This document shows, in pieces, positions 36,501 to 45,169 of a DNA stretch of 64,000 bases. The translations under genes were made by a program, and so were the position numbers. Each line of letters starts with the position of its first letter. Within the stretch, counting starts at the first letter, position 1. Source of the DNA: a virus (taxonomy: Duplodnaviria > Caudoviricetes). The DNA is taken from IMG/VR virus record IMGVR_UViG_3300007083_000004, positions 128,001-192,000 of that record. One strand, given 5' to 3'. Under the pieces are notes generated by a model. The model did no database searches, had not been told where the DNA came from, and saw only the letters and a list, made by a program, of their open reading frames with translations.

Positions 36501-37802
36501 TTAACGTGCTTGATCTACTAAATCAAATTTAGCAGAGGTTAAAGCTTTACCATGCATGGCACTCATGGATTCACCCATAAAATCATGTCCTATCTGACTA
36601 AAAGCCAATGATACAGCATCAGGGTTCATAGATAATTTCTCACCTAAACAATAAGCACAAAAATCGGGGGCTTTGGTCTTACATGTTGCAGGTGATCTTC
36701 TTTTTACTACTTTATCAATATAATTACCTATATTGTCTTCATTCAGTAGTATAGACTTATTATTTTCTAATATATAATAACCAATCATCTTCAGTTTATT
36801 AAAATCGGTAATCAACGTTGGTATTCCTACATTACTACCACAATCGATATCACTGACTTCAATATTAGAGGATTCCCTAACCAACCATTTATCCAGTTCA
36901 CCGCCATGTTGAGTTTCTACTCCTCGACTATATGAACCTGATCTCATTTCGTTCGCATAATCTTTAAATCTATTTATGTCTATCCCTTCGTTTAAACTAC
37001 GCTTGATATAAATCGTCTCTTTACCAGCCGTGGATTCTGGAGGAGCCCCGAAAGAAATATATCTCTTTTTTCTGCTATTGATGTCTTTTTTATTTATAAG
37101 AAATCCACTAGCAGGATCATCTTTAAGAGCTTTCATGTCTAAATCGATTAATTCTTTTTCAACCTGAGCGGCTACAACGGGATCATTCAAATCGATTTTC
37201 GGATCATTAAAAATTTCTTCTCTTCTCTTTAAAACTTCTTCACTTACACTTAATGATTTAGGAGTTATTGCTGGAACAAATAACATAGAGAAAGATTTTG
37301 TATAAGCTACGGCTTTATAGTATTTCTCAATTTGAGAAGGAAAGAATTTATTTGTATATACAATACTTTCATCAATATCTTCTTCAGGCTCATCAACTAA
37401 TTTTTTAGCTAATTCTTCTTCAAAAGAATCCAAGTTAATTGGTTCGTTTTTAAATTCTACCGAACCATTAAAGGGATAATAGAAAACGATGTAGTGATAT
37501 AATATCCTACCATAAGTAGTAACTATGTTACTATTGGCAAAATACAATTCGCCCTCTAATACCGTAATTTCATCCGTAGCTTTATATAAAGATTCGCCAA
37601 TTATAGAATCTTCAATAGGCAATAGAGTTTTAGTATTTAAATCATAAAACTGATGACCATTGGGGGTTTGTATCAAATCCAAATCTTTTAATTCATCTGG
37701 ATTACTATTTTCTCTTACAATAGAAAATGCTCTATTAACCCATTTTTTATCCATGTACTTTTTTTGATTAATACATTTTATAAAATATTTATCTTTATTC
37801 AT
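36501..37802 (-). CDS. rpoC: Virion RNA polymerase beta' C-terminal subunit (phiKZ gp80-like)
   Basis: TTYGR, SLNEG, RSGSYSRGVETQHGG, DCGS, RSPATC..FCAYCLG and MSAMH motifs. Confidence 0.9.
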   Translation of the reverse strand: MNKDKYFIKCINQKKYMDKKWVNRAFSIVRENSNPDELKDLDLIQTPNGHQFYDLNTKTLLPIEDSIIGESLYKATDEITVLEGELYFANSNIVTTYGRILYHYIVFYYPFNGSVEFKNEPINLDSFEEELAKKLVDEPEEDIDESIVYTNKFFPSQIEKYYKAVAYTKSFSMLFVPAITPKSLSVSEEVLKRREEIFNDPKIDLNDPVVAAQVEKELIDLDMKALKDDPASGFLINKKDINSRKKRYISFGAPPESTAGKETIYIKRSLNEGIDINRFKDYANEMRSGSYSRGVETQHGGELDKWLVRESSNIEVSDIDCGSNVGIPTLITDFNKLKMIGYYILENNKSILLNEDNIGNYIDKVVKRRSPATCKTKAPDFCAYCLGEKLSMNPDAVSLAFSQIGHDFMGESMSAMHGKALTSAKFDLVDQAR

Positions 37803-38667
37803 ATTGATGCCTATTTTCCTGATATACTTTTAAGAATCCAGCATGAATTTTACTTAGAGCTTGATTTATTTTGGTAATATCTTGCATGTCTTCAATATAG
37901 TCTTCAATAATAGATCCAATATGTAAACACGGATTGATATTACCATCATTAGAAATTAAAGCTAATGCATATAGTTCTACAGATAGATCGAATTTATCTT
38001 TAAGATTAAATAATTCGTTTATATCATCTAAAGATAAGTATGTAACCAAATGCTCATTTATAGTAAAGTTCTCTATGTTGGATAAAACAATACTGTTCTT
38101 TTCGTTAATATCTAAATAGGATTTATATGCCAACAACTTTTTATATACCTTTATTTCTTCTTCGGTTACTTCATTAATTTCTAATTGAACATCGTTAGAT
38201 AATTCTTTTATTTTATAAATCAGATCGTCTCCAACATCTTCTAAAAGATTTAACCAATAGGAAGCATCCGAATAACTAATTAATTCTAATATTTCTGATA
38301 ATTTCTCATTATTATTAATATCAGAATTAGCTATTGAATCAAAATCTTCTAATAGATCACTATTTTCAATATTGTATATTTCTTCACATAAACGATAAAT
38401 TTCAAATAAAGAGCAAGTATCTTTAGGTACTACTTGAAATTCTTCTAAACACGTAATTAGATAATCCCTTAAAGAAATTTCAAATGAATCCAATAAACTA
38501 CTAGCTGTTGCTTCATCTTCCATATTTACCGATAACAATAAATTTTCTAGTTCTATTTCCATGTCTTCATTTACTGTATTCTTTATTAAATTTATGCAAT
38601 CTTTATACAAATCAGATCTTTCTTCCGACATTTGTGTGTTTAAAAATTCTTCTAAAATAATTTCCAT
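37795..38667 (-). CDS. Acidic hypothetical protein
   Basis: 290-aa ORF coupled to the vRNAP gene. Confidence 0.7.
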   Translation of the reverse strand: MEIILEEFLNTQMSEERSDLYKDCINLIKNTVNEDMEIELENLLLSVNMEDEATASSLLDSFEISLRDYLITCLEEFQVVPKDTCSLFEIYRLCEEIYNIENSDLLEDFDSIANSDINNNEKLSEILELISYSDASYWLNLLEDVGDDLIYKIKELSNDVQLEINEVTEEEIKVYKKLLAYKSYLDINEKNSIVLSNIENFTINEHLVTYLSLDDINELFNLKDKFDLSVELYALALISNDGNINPCLHIGSIIEDYIEDMQDITKINQALSKIHAGFLKVYQENRHQYE

Positions 38668-38772
38668 TTTAAATAAAATCCAAGATATAAAAATTCAAAG
38701 GGAGAAAAATAGTTTTTTATTATATTGAAATATAGTTTGACTGTTTACGGTTAATTACTTTTAAAAGGTTTT

Positions 38773-39330
38773 ATGATGGCTAAGCAAAAAACTAGGAAAA
38801 AAAATAAACCTACTAACATGAGGAGTGATAACGCTGCTAGATGTTGGTTTGAGCTAAAGAATGTTCATAAGAGAAGTTCCAAATATCTCTTTGATACAGC
38901 CAGTCTTTTTTCACAATATTCTCATCCTGTAGTATTAAAAAAGATAGCAAAGAATGGTGATGATGTAAAATTTAATAATTTACAATTACAGGTAAGAAGT
39001 GAATTAAAACCTCTTACCGTTAAGTTCTCAGAATTATGGAATAGGCATAAGGATAAAAATAGATTATGTCATAATTATACAGAACTGGCAGAAGCTTTCG
39101 CTCTATTTGAAGAATATCAAAAATTTGATATGCAATGTTTCGATACATTTCATCCAATAGTTACTGAATTAAATGTTATATTTAATAAAGCTTTAAAAGA
39201 ATTATTGGAAAATGGTGAAATACAAAATGATCCCAATGTTAATGTTGTTACCGATCTAGAATTTAAAGAAACGCCATTACCTTCAGTTACAGATGAAGAG
39301 GTAAGTAATTTACAAGAGGTAAATAAATAA
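38773..39330 (+). CDS. Hypothetical protein
   Basis: AAGG SD; TAATG coupling to the next gene. Confidence 0.75.
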   Translation: MMAKQKTRKKNKPTNMRSDNAARCWFELKNVHKRSSKYLFDTASLFSQYSHPVVLKKIAKNGDDVKFNNLQLQVRSELKPLTVKFSELWNRHKDKNRLCHNYTELAEAFALFEEYQKFDMQCFDTFHPIVTELNVIFNKALKELLENGEIQNDPNVNVVTDLEFKETPLPSVTDEEVSNLQEVNK

Positions 39331-40859
39331 TGACTATTGCACCTGAAGATATGACAGAGAACAATAAAACCGATAAAGATGAAGTGGAATTGACTATAAA
39401 TGAAGAATCATTAGAATCTACCAATAATAAAAAAAGTAAGTTAATTCAAAAAAAGAATTATGAAACAAATACTCCATTAGTAACTGATGGAGAAAAGGAT
39501 GAGTTGCTGAAAAAATATGATAATATTTCTATTTCAGCTCTCCCAGATTCGGTATCTAAAGTAAATGATGATATTGAGAGTACTAAAGAACAAATAGATA
39601 TTACCGAAGAATCTAGAGATTGGTTTGCTACTCTTTTAAATGGATTTAGAAGTCATCCTGCAAATGGGATGTTTGAGAATGCATTATCCTCAAGCGATAG
39701 TGAATGGAGAAATGTTTTAACCCATAATGGACAAAACATAAATATTGGTAGGCCAAAGTTTTCCAACAAAGGTAAATCTTCTAAATTAACTTCTGAAAGA
39801 TTAACCTTATCCATTAGAGCTAGATTGGGTTTAGGCTCTCCCATTCAAATCCCATTACCTGCTTCCGGTTTTTATGTTACTATAAAACCTTTAGGTGAGG
39901 ATGAGATAATTGCATTGTGGAGAGAAATCATAGCCGAGACTGTAAAACTGGGTAGAGTTACTCACGGTTTGATATTTAGCAATAATCAATCCTTAGCAGC
40001 TAAGGCTGTATGTGAAGCCTGGAGGAGATCTATATTCGAAACAACGGTTCATGACATGAATCTGGATAATATCTTCGAATATATTAAAATAAATGATCTA
40101 CCGGTTATAGCTCAATCGTTAGCCACTTCCATTTATCCTAATGGTTTTCCTTTAACCAGGGCTGTATTTACTGAAGATACCAATACTCCTAAAGAAGAAA
40201 TTAGTCAGGTAATTGATATTCGAAAATGTTTGTTTATGAATAATAAGGCATTTAGCGATAGTCAGTTAGAGCATATGACTAAAAGAATAGAACAACCCAT
40301 GAGCTTAAAATCAATTAAAGCCTATACTGAAGATTTTAAATTCAATCAAAATTCTGTCATAGATATCAGTGATGATATTAAATTGCATTTACATACTCCG
40401 TCATTAAAAGATTATTTTGATTCTGGAGAGAAATGGATTAATGATATCAATACCACCGTATCAGAAGCTTTAGGGGCAGAACCTAAAGAAAATGAAAGAT
40501 TAAGATATATTAGTCAGTTGGCTTTATCTACCAGATTGAGACAATTTTCTCATTATGTAAAGGCGGTAGAAGAAGATGGTGAATTATATTCTACTCGTGA
40601 AAACATTGATAAAGTATTAATTGCTTTATCTACATCTGAAGAAATATCCAAGAAGTTTTATTCTTCAATTTCAGATTACATAAATAATACGCAAGTAGCA
40701 ATTGTAGCTACAACGAGCGTGAATGAATACGAAGATGTGCTAACTGGTAATAAATGGCCTAGACTAATAGCCATGGACGCGGTATCGGTTTTTTTTCAAT
40801 TGGTCGAGCAGAAGTTGCTTGGGATCACATCCAGGGTACTGGAGGACACGTCGGATTAG
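39330..40859 (+). CDS. Conserved protein (probably phiKZ gp77-like); candidate tail/baseplate assembly chaperone with a slippery 3' end
   Basis: 'LPASGFYVTIKPL' resembles T4 gp26-type chaperone motifs; T8 slippery run at 40789-40796. Confidence 0.55.
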   Translation: MTIAPEDMTENNKTDKDEVELTINEESLESTNNKKSKLIQKKNYETNTPLVTDGEKDELLKKYDNISISALPDSVSKVNDDIESTKEQIDITEESRDWFATLLNGFRSHPANGMFENALSSSDSEWRNVLTHNGQNINIGRPKFSNKGKSSKLTSERLTLSIRARLGLGSPIQIPLPASGFYVTIKPLGEDEIIALWREIIAETVKLGRVTHGLIFSNNQSLAAKAVCEAWRRSIFETTVHDMNLDNIFEYIKINDLPVIAQSLATSIYPNGFPLTRAVFTEDTNTPKEEISQVIDIRKCLFMNNKAFSDSQLEHMTKRIEQPMSLKSIKAYTEDFKFNQNSVIDISDDIKLHLHTPSLKDYFDSGEKWINDINTTVSEALGAEPKENERLRYISQLALSTRLRQFSHYVKAVEEDGELYSTRENIDKVLIALSTSEEISKKFYSSISDYINNTQVAIVATTSVNEYEDVLTGNKWPRLIAMDAVSVFFQLVEQKLLGITSRVLEDTSD

Positions 40860-41278
40860 AAGCAGAAATGATTCGATCCGAAGCCAGGGAGATATTACCT
40901 GTAAATTACGTATTAAATTCTATTAAAGATGTATATCTACCACATCCAATAGATGCTAAAATCTTTATGGATATGCAATATGATAATTACATGGATATTT
41001 GGGATCATAATGGTCCCGATAAAAAAGATACTCCTTGGCCGCTACTGCTCGTATCTCCAAAAGAAGATTTAGCCAGAGTTGATCCACTGGACTTTAGATT
41101 AGATCAATATGTAGAAAATAAGGTATATGAATTATTTGGCATACCTTTTCATGAATTGATTCAATTTCCTAGAAGGGATTTTTTAAAAGTAATTAATTCT
41201 GCCAAGAAGCATTCTGCCAGATCCATAGATATTGGTTCATCGGAATTAAAGAAATTAGAGAAAACTCTGAAAGGTTAA
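40790..41278 (+). CDS. -1 frame extension (includes the 40868..41278 ORF); candidate 'GT'-type chaperone domain
   Basis: The -1 frame is open from 40763 to 41278. 'FGIPFHELIQFPR' resembles the small helical motif of tail-chaperone extensions. No good SD at ATG 40868. Confidence 0.55.
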   Translation, partial: FFSIGRAEVAWDHIQGTGGHVGLEAEMIRSEAREILPVNYVLNSIKDVYLPHPIDAKIFMDMQYDNYMDIWDHNGPDKKDTPWPLLLVSPKEDLARVDPLDFRLDQYVENKVYELFGIPFHELIQFPRRDFLKVINSAKKHSARSIDIGSSELKKLEKTLKG

Positions 41279-41304
41279 TATAAATTATAAACTCTATATA
41301 TCTA

Positions 41305-41320
41305 TATATTATTTTATTGA
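41305..41320 (+). promoter_or_regulatory. Early-promoter-like motif
   Basis: TATATTAT-tttatTG. Confidence 0.45.
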
Positions 41321-41377
41321 GCTAGCTTTACTCATCCCTTAACTCAAACAAAAAAGGAGCATGACGTTTAAATAAAG

Positions 41378-42028
41378 GTGATTATTATGAAACTAATGAA
41401 ACAGAAAGATATAAACAAAATCAGATTTAAATCCATTATAAATGAAAATCTTTTATATGGAAAATTTGATTGCCACAACACTCCAACGCTAACCACTAAT
41501 ACAATCGACCTGCGAAACAAAATCGATGATTTTGTAGCCAATGGTCAACAGGAAAATATTGTAAACTTATTTGTTGGATGTAATACAATTCCGTTTTTTA
41601 TTGGTGACTGGAACTTGAAAACCAATATAAAGGAAATCGATAAGCATGTAATAAATAAAGTTGTGATAGCTTTACCTAAATCCACTAGAGCATCTCAGTT
41701 ATTTGAAAAAGGATGTAAGGTAAAGCTAAAACAACGTGGTTTTTCTGATCAAGAAATCGATATTTATTACAAACTGGCTTGGAAAAAGAAGTATGTTTGG
41801 TTAGATTCCGTTATTAAGTGTATTGCCGATATTTTAAAGAAGAAAATGTCATCTGAAGTAATCGGTAATATCATGGAGCAGGAGGATTCCAGACATTTTT
41901 GTATGAATTTAGGTATACCCGATAATCCCTATATTTGTACAGAGAGTCAGTTTGAAACAGTTCTTCGAATGGCGTTAGACATTTCTTTGGAGAAAGAAAA
42001 TTTGAAATTCGGCAAATGTAGTTTATAA
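41378..42028 (+). CDS. Hypothetical protein
   Basis: 216-aa ORF; start uncertain (GTG 41378 or ATG 41387). Confidence 0.7.
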   Translation: MIIMKLMKQKDINKIRFKSIINENLLYGKFDCHNTPTLTTNTIDLRNKIDDFVANGQQENIVNLFVGCNTIPFFIGDWNLKTNIKEIDKHVINKVVIALPKSTRASQLFEKGCKVKLKQRGFSDQEIDIYYKLAWKKKYVWLDSVIKCIADILKKKMSSEVIGNIMEQEDSRHFCMNLGIPDNPYICTESQFETVLRMALDISLEKENLKFGKCSL

Positions 42029-42035
42029 CATATTT

Positions 42036-42073
42036 ATATATAGCTAGATGGCTAATGCCATCTAGCTATATAT
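42036..42073. terminator. Bidirectional terminator-like inverted repeat
   Basis: 17-bp arms, 4-nt loop, convergent genes. Confidence 0.8.
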
Positions 42074-42074
42074 T

Positions 42075-43787
42075 TTATTTTTTGTCGTAAATATTACATA
42101 ATTCAGTCAATGTAGGTAAACCAAATATATTACAAGTAAATTCTATTGCGTTAGTTTTACCGCCACTTAAATTTAATCCTTGGGTTCTTTTTACTTCCTC
42201 ACTAATGCCATCGATTTCTATAATTTCTTTTTTTGTAGTATTTCTGGATATGTTAAATGTGTACTGAGTTGTAGGGTATGAAGAAACTATATCCAAGTCT
42301 GCCGCATGTACATAAAAGTTGCTTTGCAATCCTTTAAAATCTTCAAATATATGTAACCCATTATCTATAGTCAAATGAGGCTCTAATGTGACGATATGGC
42401 CTTTAGAATCAATTGTTAATTGATCGTATTCTTGTTTGATATTATCAGCTACAGTTCCTGTAACACTATTGTGTTTATGATAGATAAAGTAATGGAATTT
42501 ATGGATATATCTTTTAGGTTCAGAATTAAAAAACGAAAAATCTGATATGTCTACAACAGCAGGTAAAGTATAGTCCATATCCTTAGTTTTATCATTCATG
42601 ACTTTCATGCATAATACATCCCAAATATGATATATAATGTATTGACCAGGATATTTCCTTTGCATATGAATATGAAATTCCATGCCGTTTAGGTTTTCTG
42701 CTGGTTCATATTTTAATTTACCTAATCCATTTAATTCTTTTTTTAAAATATTATCTAAAGAATAAGATTTATCTAATTGTTTAGATTTACGTATAAACCT
42801 ATACGTAGCCATTTGATCTATAAAGTAAAACGAGCTAGGACATGTAAGCGTATGCCATTGATCAGCCGGTATCTTTGTTATTTGTCTACCAGAAGCGGTT
42901 ACTTTAGCCGGCTTATCTTTCTTTAAATTAATAAATCGAAATGGCCTAGGTAACTGCGGATCACAAAAATAATCACCGGCATCTAGATTAGCTTCATCAA
43001 ATACAGATAACATTTTCTCCAAATCAAATAACATGTTCCAAAAAGATATAAAATCTGGTTTTATTTCATGACATTTTTCCAATATCATCTTAACTATCTG
43101 TAATGGGCTATCGGCATAATCTATAATCCACTTTGTTACTATATCCTTACCTTCTTGAGGTAAATAATCGTCATACATTTCCTTTAATGTCTTATTTACC
43201 TCTGGTATGATTGATACAAAATCCTTTAGAATTACTGTATATAATAAACCATTAAAGTATATAGATTGCATGATAATTGGTTTACTATTACCATATTTGC
43301 CTAACACATCCGTTTCAGTATCTGAATAACAAATAGAAAAAGGCGTTATTGGTCTATTCTTTAATTTCCTTTTATACAATTCTTTTATTTGTATAGTAGA
43401 TGGTATATCTAGACCATACAAATATGGTGATTGTTTTAACTGTTGGTGTCTATTTGCCAATCTATATTGATCTAAATCTTTAGCTACGTTTAAATATAAA
43501 TCAGATTCTATTGATTCCCTTTCTATTAGGTTATCTAAAGATTCATATTCTTTTTTTTGTTTATATGTACGGTATTTGGGTTTGGTAATCCAATATTTAC
43601 GTTTAAAATCTTTTATATATCTAACATGAGGTACTATATCACCATTTTTTAAATGAATAGCTTCCTTTATTAAATGTAAATCATCGGTATTATCAGTTTT
43701 TGGAATATGTATCACAAATCTACATTCAATATAGTCTATTTCAGACTTATTATATTTAGGTTTCATGAATGAATATTTATCGTCCAT
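42075..43787 (-). CDS. DNA polymerase B N-terminal part: 3'-5' exonuclease plus motif A (phiKZ gp82-like)
   Basis: DTETD (ExoI), FWNMLFD (ExoII), YSLD, YHIWD (ExoIII) and DLDIVSSYP (Pol motif A). Confidence 0.88.
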   Translation of the reverse strand: MDDKYSFMKPKYNKSEIDYIECRFVIHIPKTDNTDDLHLIKEAIHLKNGDIVPHVRYIKDFKRKYWITKPKYRTYKQKKEYESLDNLIERESIESDLYLNVAKDLDQYRLANRHQQLKQSPYLYGLDIPSTIQIKELYKRKLKNRPITPFSICYSDTETDVLGKYGNSKPIIMQSIYFNGLLYTVILKDFVSIIPEVNKTLKEMYDDYLPQEGKDIVTKWIIDYADSPLQIVKMILEKCHEIKPDFISFWNMLFDLEKMLSVFDEANLDAGDYFCDPQLPRPFRFINLKKDKPAKVTASGRQITKIPADQWHTLTCPSSFYFIDQMATYRFIRKSKQLDKSYSLDNILKKELNGLGKLKYEPAENLNGMEFHIHMQRKYPGQYIIYHIWDVLCMKVMNDKTKDMDYTLPAVVDISDFSFFNSEPKRYIHKFHYFIYHKHNSVTGTVADNIKQEYDQLTIDSKGHIVTLEPHLTIDNGLHIFEDFKGLQSNFYVHAADLDIVSSYPTTQYTFNISRNTTKKEIIEIDGISEEVKRTQGLNLSGGKTNAIEFTCNIFGLPTLTELCNIYDKK

Positions 43788-43861
43788 TTACTCGATTTCC
43801 TTTTTTAACTATCTAAACCACAGAATAATTGTTTTTGGTTTTAATTTATAGAGAAATAAAT

Positions 43862-45169
43862 ATGATCAACAATCCCATTAAGCAGTCTTTGGAAGGTATT
43901 AATTTTCAATCTGGAATATTCCATAAAGCTCTAACAAAAATACTGGAAGATTTTATTGAGGAAAAATCTTATACTAAATTAGATTCTAAAATGATAGAAT
44001 CATTGGAAATGAATATAACCAAGTGCATTAAGATTCATACCAATATGAATATTGATGTAAATATAAATGAATATCTACCTTGTGTAGAATCACCTAAAGT
44101 AGATAAAAACAATCCCATGATAGAAGGTTATAATTGGGATGGATTAGGTAATAAAACTAGTCTAAGTGATATTAGAAATAATTCAGAAAAACAGATAAAA
44201 GGTTTATTGGATAAAGATAAATCCAGAGTTTCTGGTTATTTTGCCAATATGAAACCAATAAATATGTATGTGAATGTTTTAATGGTGGATGAAATGATTA
44301 GCGAAAATGAGGCTAAATCTAAACCTAAAACATTCAAAATGACAACTAAAGAAATGGCCGCTATTATTTTACATGAAGTCGGTCATACATGGACTTATTT
44401 TGAATTCTTATGCAGATTCAGGACGACCAATCAGATATTGGTTGCTACACTAAGAGAGTTAGAGGGTAGTGAGGATCACGATAAGAGAGAATATATTATA
44501 AAAGAAGCTAAGAATGCATTGGAATTAAAAAATCTGGAAATAGGTGATTTACATACTAAATCTAATACCACCGTATTTAGTCTTTTAGTGTCAAATATAG
44601 CTAGAAAAAATATATCTCAATCTGGTGTAGATGGTTATGATATAAATTCATTTGAAGCCTTAGCAGATCAATTTGCAACTAGACATGGCGCTGGTAGATA
44701 CTTGGTAACTGGATTGGATAAAATGATTAAGAGGTTTGGCGGTAGGATTTCTAATAGAAATATGTTTTCATATCTCTTTATAGAAGCCTTAAAAATCTCA
44801 CTAATACCACTTACAGCGATATTTCCTTATTCGATAATTCTATTACTGATAACTATTAGTATTGATTCATATCACGATTGGTATGATAAAGACGGTTATA
44901 GATTCAAGCGAGTTAGAAATCAATTAATTGAACAATTAAAAGATTCCATATTACCTAAAGAAGTATCAGAAACAATAAGAGAAGACATAAATTATATTGA
45001 AAGTATAAGTAATGGTTATAAAGACCGAGTTCAGCTATTTGGTCTAATCTATGATTACTTGATTCCTAAAGGAATAGATAAAAGGAAACAAATAGATTTT
45101 CAACAAAAAATTGAAGAATTGAGTTCCAATAAGTTATTTTATTTTGCCAATCAAATCAAGCATTCTTAA
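43862..45169 (+). CDS. Virion protein with a zincin-like metallopeptidase motif (phiKZ gp84-like)
   Basis: ILHEVGH (HExxH), EALADQFA, one hydrophobic segment, N-terminal SLE cleavage motif. Confidence 0.75.
   Translation: MINNPIKQSLEGINFQSGIFHKALTKILEDFIEEKSYTKLDSKMIESLEMNITKCIKIHTNMNIDVNINEYLPCVESPKVDKNNPMIEGYNWDGLGNKTSLSDIRNNSEKQIKGLLDKDKSRVSGYFANMKPINMYVNVLMVDEMISENEAKSKPKTFKMTTKEMAAIILHEVGHTWTYFEFLCRFRTTNQILVATLRELEGSEDHDKREYIIKEAKNALELKNLEIGDLHTKSNTTVFSLLVSNIARKNISQSGVDGYDINSFEALADQFATRHGAGRYLVTGLDKMIKRFGGRISNRNMFSYLFIEALKISLIPLTAIFPYSIILLLITISIDSYHDWYDKDGYRFKRVRNQLIEQLKDSILPKEVSETIREDINYIESISNGYKDRVQLFGLIYDYLIPKGIDKRKQIDFQQKIEELSSNKLFYFANQIKHS

Follow-up and report, generated by a model that had tools for sequence, protein, structure and literature searches.

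Does the pair of open reading frames (ORFs) lying end to end behind an RNA polymerase gene of an uncultured phage represent two genes, or a single gene read in two ways? The question arose in a stretch of 64,000 nucleotides (nt), here called the window, which is bases 128001-192000 of the 200,349-base uncultured viral record IMGVR_UViG_3300007083_000004, judged 89% complete. The first frame, ORF1, encodes a homologue of phage phiKZ gp77; the second is a 136-amino-acid (aa) ORF at 40868-41278 in the -1 frame, and its ATG lies 9 nt past the ORF1 stop. The original prediction, made from the letters of the window, had proposed that a programmed -1 frameshift fuses the two. All of its statements on the sequence were borne out: the 509-aa ORF1, the T8 run at 40789-40796, the -1 frame open past the TAG at 40760-40762, the 649-aa product and its junction VSVFFSIGR. 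Judging from the comparative sequence analysis below, we concluded that the locus is most probably one gene with two products, of 509 and 649 aa, made by programmed -1 ribosomal frameshifting.

Codons 487-490 of ORF1 are GTT TTT TTT CAA, and they place a slippery heptamer of the X_XXY_YYZ type in the phase of the zero frame. The -1 frame is closed by the TAG at 40760-40762 and is then open from 40763 up to the TAA at 41276-41278; its translation reads ...GFFSIGRAEVAWDHIQGTGGHVGLEAE before it reaches ATG 40868. In the mechanism that we propose, most ribosomes would read ORF1 to the TAG at 40857 and release the 509-aa short form. A fraction of the ribosomes would slip while their P and A sites hold tRNA-Phe on the UUU codons 488 and 489, respectively, both tRNAs moving back by one base on U_UUU_UUU (40790-40796) and re-pairing perfectly. 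Reading would resume in the -1 frame (UCA AUU GGU ...) and continue for 160 codons to the TAA at 41276. The long form would then share residues 1-489 with the short form and carry in addition a conserved, mostly helical C-terminal domain, giving a predicted 489 + 160 = 649 aa with VSVFF joined to SIGRAEVAW... at the junction. The expected masses of the two forms are about 58 and 74 kDa. The predicted tryptic peptide across the junction of the window's long form is LIAMDAVSVFFSIGR, and its counterpart in the short form is LIAMDAVSVFFQLVEQK.

The site was compared in 42 loci drawn from annotated phage records, IMG/VR and metagenomes; 38 of them are distinct around the site, and the set forms 26 clusters at 50% identity of the extension. 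A metagenome scan with a narrow alignment contributed just 2 loci, and a scan of viral contigs with a single protein as query contributed none. An in-phase TTT TTY at the same Phe-Phe, together with an open -1 frame, was found in 38 of the 38 distinct loci. The first Phe codon is always TTT; the second is TTT in 31 loci and TTC in 7. At position X, just before Phe-Phe, 31 loci have T, 6 have G and 1 has A, and the run of T is 7-8 long in 30 loci, six long in 7 and five long in 1. Past the site, the zero frame goes on for only 8-44 codons, and the -1 frame is open for 151-182 codons in every locus. This pattern of strictness is the one that follows from tandem tRNA slippage, in which the A-site codon always re-pairs, the last base Z is free (T or C) and X is looser. 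At the other Phe codons of these ORF1s, TTT is used 199 times and TTC 498 times, and several G+C-rich relatives use TTT for none of their other Phe residues (0/17 or 0/18) yet have TTT TTT at the site. The recurrence of this layout is far beyond chance. The heptamer and the open -1 overlap were what orthologues had been expected to keep if the fusion was programmed, and both were present in every locus; the proposed shift is well supported on this point. The shortest run is that of Pseudomonas phage Noxifer, GAG TTT TTC (T5, with G as X; L033:2647-2652), and a homologous -1 extension of 172 codons follows it; this natural variant would help to tell slippage of the ribosome from slippage of the polymerase.

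The downstream frame behaves as part of the same gene. Its -1 peptides align over their full length across the family, as one homologous domain, and the homology begins at the shift site, with a GH(V/I) motif that precedes the window's ATG 40868. The first ATG, GTG or TTG of the -1 frame lies anywhere from 8 to 135 codons past the site in the 38 loci, and the codon aligned to ATG 40868 is CTA in phage SURPRISE13 and AAG in RSF1. The signal and the open -1 frame are thus conserved together, with -1 coding ahead of any start codon. In IMG/VR UViG_3300009868_000030 (L011:2451-2920), none of the first 135 of 154 extension codons is ATG, GTG or TTG; from its sequence, this is the clearest case of a domain that would not be makeable by independent initiation. 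In phiKZ the first start codon appears 85 codons into an extension of 165, and PHIKZ076.4, annotated with 80 aa, is only the distal half of that extension (L003:3724-4239; reverse complement of 71442-71957). In NC_004629, 219 nt of "intergenic" sequence separate PHIKZ076.4 from gene 77 of phiKZ; the -1 frame is open across them, and conserved residues are encoded there. In the window, as the original prediction had remarked, ATG 40868 has no well-spaced Shine-Dalgarno sequence, the closest GGAGG being 22 nt upstream. We concluded that the putative 136-aa gene from 40868 is, by these alignments, the distal part of the extension domain and not an independent gene.

Public protein collections hold the extension in pieces. 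A profile of the extension, searched against 1.84 billion proteins, matched 1442 cluster representatives. The best 150 of these 1442 are all 98-182 aa long; their matches start at profile positions 2-62 and at their own residues 1-39, mostly within the first 10. The starts are scattered along the profile yet lie at the N-termini of the proteins themselves, indicating that the public calls are N-terminally truncated at arbitrary gene-caller starts. No fused ORF1-extension protein was present among the same best 150, and a word-based search of proteins of 320-2000 aa, which is weak evidence, also gave no fusion. Close homologues of ORF1 are 445-522 aa long in 39 of 39 cases, that is, none is fused. 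In all 23 Chimalliviridae records consulted, the locus is annotated as two genes or its downstream frame carries no annotation, with no joined coding sequence in any of them, and no database record examined describes a frameshift at the gp77 locus. No description of a frameshift in gp77 or in Chimalliviridae was found in the literature, subscription journals being outside the coverage, in agreement with the original prediction, which was aware of none for this phage group.

The overlap of the two frames is under unusual constraint. Starting at the T-run, 34 bases show hardly any variation among nine members of the window's clade, despite a 20-point spread in G+C. Between the window and its clade, codons for the same residue are identical in 68% of cases in the overlap and in 25% elsewhere. 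A wobble position in one frame is a non-wobble position in the other, so that such constraint is expected from selection on both peptides, and conservation alone therefore cannot reveal an RNA signal within the overlap. The predicted fold of 74 nt in the window is unremarkable (z -0.38), and no conserved Shine-Dalgarno-like element was found upstream of the site by eye. The hairpin TCCAG-GGTA-CTGGA, to which the original prediction had drawn attention, is present and forms part of the centroid fold, but it lies 33 nt downstream of the heptamer, and the closest relatives have not kept it. A better placed candidate is the hairpin at 40805-40821, whose spacing of 8 nt from the heptamer is canonical. 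A consensus structure from RNAalifold was also considered as a conserved stimulator and was rejected; it showed no covariation.

Several observations weigh against a programmed shift on the ribosome. The hairpin at 40805-40821 is invariant in sequence in seven of nine close relatives, and in the other two its stem is broken without compensation; RNAalifold on the relatives gave no covariation. Over the 60 nt downstream of the site, the 38 loci have a mean z of 0.02, with only four below -1.64, which gives no conserved structure (pseudoknots were not searched). A G as X in six loci, or an A in one, weakens re-pairing in the P site. The junction peptide would also be identical if the slippage were transcriptional, so that the comparative data do not tell one mechanism from the other. 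In the transcriptional case, RNA polymerase would stutter on the A8 template run, and the fraction of mRNA with U9 would encode the same 649-aa fusion with exactly the same junction VSVFFSIGR; the stuttering enzyme would probably be the phage's own non-virion RNA polymerase. The homopolymer of 7-8 T in 30 of 38 loci, the failure to find a conserved ribosomal stimulator and the unusual multisubunit RNA polymerases that these phages use are all in keeping with this explanation, and we know of no account of the slippage behaviour of those polymerases. However, runs of T5-T6 are too short for efficient polymerase stuttering, and seven loci have T6 and Noxifer has T5. The loci invariably keep the codon pattern TTT TTY and not the length of the run, and a stuttering polymerase would in addition produce deletions and insertions of two bases, for whose products no use is evident. 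We consider transcriptional slippage the main rival, though an improbable one.

The same comparisons bear on two further explanations. If the locus held two independent genes, the 136-aa ORF would be translated from ATG 40868, perhaps coupled to termination at 40859, and the T-run would merely encode Phe-Phe. The closeness of that ATG to the ORF1 stop, and the way in which all 23 Chimalliviridae records consulted are annotated, would agree with this, but the homology of the downstream domain starts at the shift site and includes the GH(V/I) motif upstream of the ATG, start codons are unconserved, the frame lacking any for as many as 135 of 154 codons, and the -1 relation of the frames is kept in 38 of 38 loci. 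The choice of Phe codons at the site moreover opposes the genomes' own bias, and ATG 40868 lacks a well-spaced Shine-Dalgarno sequence. Two separate genes are, in our judgement, very improbable. Still less credible, to the point that we give it hardly any weight, is an error of sequencing or assembly in the homopolymer, or a decaying gene, with a single 649-aa frame containing T9 as the true gene. Some sequencing platforms tend to err in homopolymers, and the source of the window is a contig of an uncultured virus; against this, 38 distinct loci from independently sequenced isolates and metagenomes share the frame break, runs of 5 to 8 T are all out of frame alike, and no in-frame version was found.

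Programmed -1 ribosomal frameshifting is thus the reading that we retain. Slippage on the ribosome, and its efficiency, are what we infer from the sequence. Both forms would be needed, in some ratio, to judge from the 26 divergent clusters, none of which has turned the layout into a single frame or a pair of proper genes.

ORF1 matches phrog_4585 (E 1e-123, residues 4-508), and tblastn with ORF1 found matches in 206 phage records, including phiKZ PHIKZ077, 201phi2-1 gp136 and Goslar gp081. The RSL2/RSF1-like Ralstonia and Burkholderia phages are 61-63% identical to it in the same search. By this similarity, ORF1 is assigned to the phiKZ gp77 family (phrog_4585), a core gene of Chimalliviridae. 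The gene for the RNA polymerase beta subunit (36501-37802, minus strand) and gp79-like and gp78-like genes lie upstream, and a DNA polymerase gene (42075-43787, minus strand) lies downstream. The order RNA polymerase beta (gp80), gp79, gp78, gp77 and a small downstream ORF, as found in the window, is also that of phiKZ, RP12, 201phi2-1 and others. The stop of the gp78-like gene overlaps the start of ORF1 (TAATG, window 39328-39332), and an AGAGG stands about 12 nt upstream, which suggests that gp78 and gp77 are translationally coupled. G+C is 32% here and about 53% in the nearest relatives (RSL2, RSF1 and SURPRISE13), at 60-64% protein identity (36501-45169); so large a compositional shift inside one clade may reflect a quite different host, one rich in A+T. 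The features of the locus are listed in the table.

Table. Features of the gp77 locus, in window coordinates; the products, the frameshift and the stimulatory element are predicted.
Feature	Position	Strand	Remarks
ORF1, short form, 509 aa	39330-40859	+	phiKZ gp77 homologue; zero-frame stop TAG 40857-40859
Slippery heptamer T_TTT_TTT	40790-40796	+	In phase; codons 488-489 are Phe-Phe; within the T8 run 40789-40796
-1 frame extension	40796-41278	+	160 codons and TAA 41276-41278; would be joined to residues 1-489 to give 649 aa
Overlap, both frames open	40763-40859	+	Nucleotides nearly invariant among relatives; includes GGHVG, a conserved motif of the extension, which precedes ATG 40868
ATG	40868-40870	+	Gene-caller start of the 136-aa ORF; would be an internal Met (extension residue 25) in the long form
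Candidate stimulatory hairpin CGAGCA-GAAGU-UGCUUG	40805-40821	+	6 bp, 8 nt past the heptamer; weak
Hairpin TCCAG-GGTA-CTGGA	40830-40843	+	Probably incidental; not conserved in relatives

What the two products do was approached through ORF1 and the extension, which were modelled separately. Pfam gave no significant family for either part (28 + 17 = 45 members, plus 10 more ORF1 homologues), and sequence profiles compared with solved structures gave no relative. The AlphaFold model of ORF1 is good, with a predicted local distance difference test score (pLDDT) of 77 and a predicted template modelling score (pTM) of 0.79. Against solved structures it returned noise only (Foldseek, best E 0.48; VIA wide, best Z 5.3). 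In a Foldseek search of BFVD, its own family came first, followed by about 15 T4-like entries named "baseplate hub subunit" or "hub assembly protein", 245-285 aa long (E 3e-4 to 4e-2; template modelling score 0.43-0.55 by target length). In the ESM Atlas, the nearest named cluster to ORF1 has PF12322 T4_baseplate in 71% of its members (score 0.90, 196/256 features).

Direct searches for this relationship gave nothing significant. With hmmscan, PF12322 had no match at E <= 0.1 or E <= 1 in 38 members, and a six-frame search of the whole phage record with PF12322 found none, as it also found none in control genomes. Comparisons by hhalign with T4 gp26 and gp51 as single sequences were not significant, nor was that with a 26-sequence gp51 alignment (probability 0.4%). 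The relationship to T4 gp26/gp51 that the original prediction had suggested for checking thus drew weak support from the fold and language-model searches and none from Pfam or profile-profile comparison. From the models, a role in baseplate-hub assembly like that of T4 gp26/gp51 may be taken as a lead, not as a finding. The sole local alignment of gp77 and gp51 by hhalign, which is not significant, pairs window 40771-40799 with residues 198-214 of T4 gp51 (L042:4480-5226) and falls on the shift-site motif; it reads (K/R)(W/F)P-x-L-I-P-I-D-x-x-S-x-F-F in gp77 and F-K-L-L-L-N-P-D-E-I-F-x-F-Y in gp51.

An atlas of 40 proteins of the phiKZ virion makes no mention of gp77 (PMC13250141), and a preprint on the Goslar virion structure makes none of gp81 or gp82. 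This absence from accounts of the virion fits a non-structural assembly factor. The extension was modelled as a mostly helical domain with low confidence (pLDDT 65), and its fold matches are only the small ORFs of its own family. Its look-alikes in the ESM Atlas, with a DNA_pol_B share of 20-36% and fewer than 170 features in common, were taken for noise.

A wider reading, which we regard as doubtful when taken as a whole, would be that all nucleus-forming jumbo phages make a core non-virion assembly factor, a giant relative of gp26/gp51, as an obligatory pair of short and long forms, by an ancient -1 frameshift on U_UUU_UUY that works with no conserved RNA stimulator. Since no conserved stimulator was found, the efficiency may be set by a factor specific to the infection, for example ribosomes modified by the phage or the RNA polymerase that it encodes. 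If this were true, the site would be a natural reporter of the fidelity of translation or transcription in the infected cell. The mechanism would be of interest in itself, since these phages remodel the ribosomes of the host and transcribe with RNA polymerases of their own, and no stimulator is evident at the site.

The narrower conclusion, that one gene most probably makes both products, would already mean that a core gene is to be re-annotated in all genomes of Chimalliviridae, where the downstream "hypothetical protein" (for example PHIKZ076.4) would not be a separate gene. It would also add a family-wide recoding event outside the tail-chaperone genes, common to a large phage family and unannotated in it. 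For an uncharacterised core protein, it would offer a handle on which form is needed, in what ratio and at which assembly step.

Among known systems with nested products, the record of T4 gene 26 (L042:3803-4429) annotates gp26 together with a C-terminal gp26', a likeness to the pair proposed here. The nested product of gene 26, however, is made by internal initiation and not by frameshifting, and ORF1 is twice the size of gp26 and gp51. T7 gene 10 (10A/10B) and E. coli dnaX (tau/gamma) have homopolymer-rich slippery sites and give two forms at a fixed ratio, and 10B, as proposed for the long form of gp77, is a C-terminal extension of the main product. dnaX has an upstream Shine-Dalgarno-like element and a downstream hairpin, whereas no conserved stimulator was found at gp77. 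The gp77 extension is also a conserved domain of about 160 aa and not a short tail.

The closest parallel in layout is with lambda G/GT and P2 E/E+E', the tail assembly chaperones made through the conserved -1 frameshift of long-tailed phages. There, as is proposed for gp77, a -1 shift on X_XXY_YYZ near the end of a morphogenesis-related gene gives a short form and a C-terminally extended form with a common N-terminal part, the second ORF has no start of its own, and the arrangement is conserved across a whole phage group. The original prediction had gone further and taken the gp77 pair for the equivalent of G/GT; this did not hold. The short form here has 509 aa against about 140, which makes the gene about four times larger than G, and the position is wrong, the locus lying between the RNA polymerase beta and DNA polymerase genes and not with those of the tail tube and tape measure. 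Pfam gave no match to a chaperone family, no chaperone entries appeared among the viral fold matches, and the fold differs. What gp77 would have in common with G/GT is the mechanism, by which a single locus yields two nested products, and not family membership.

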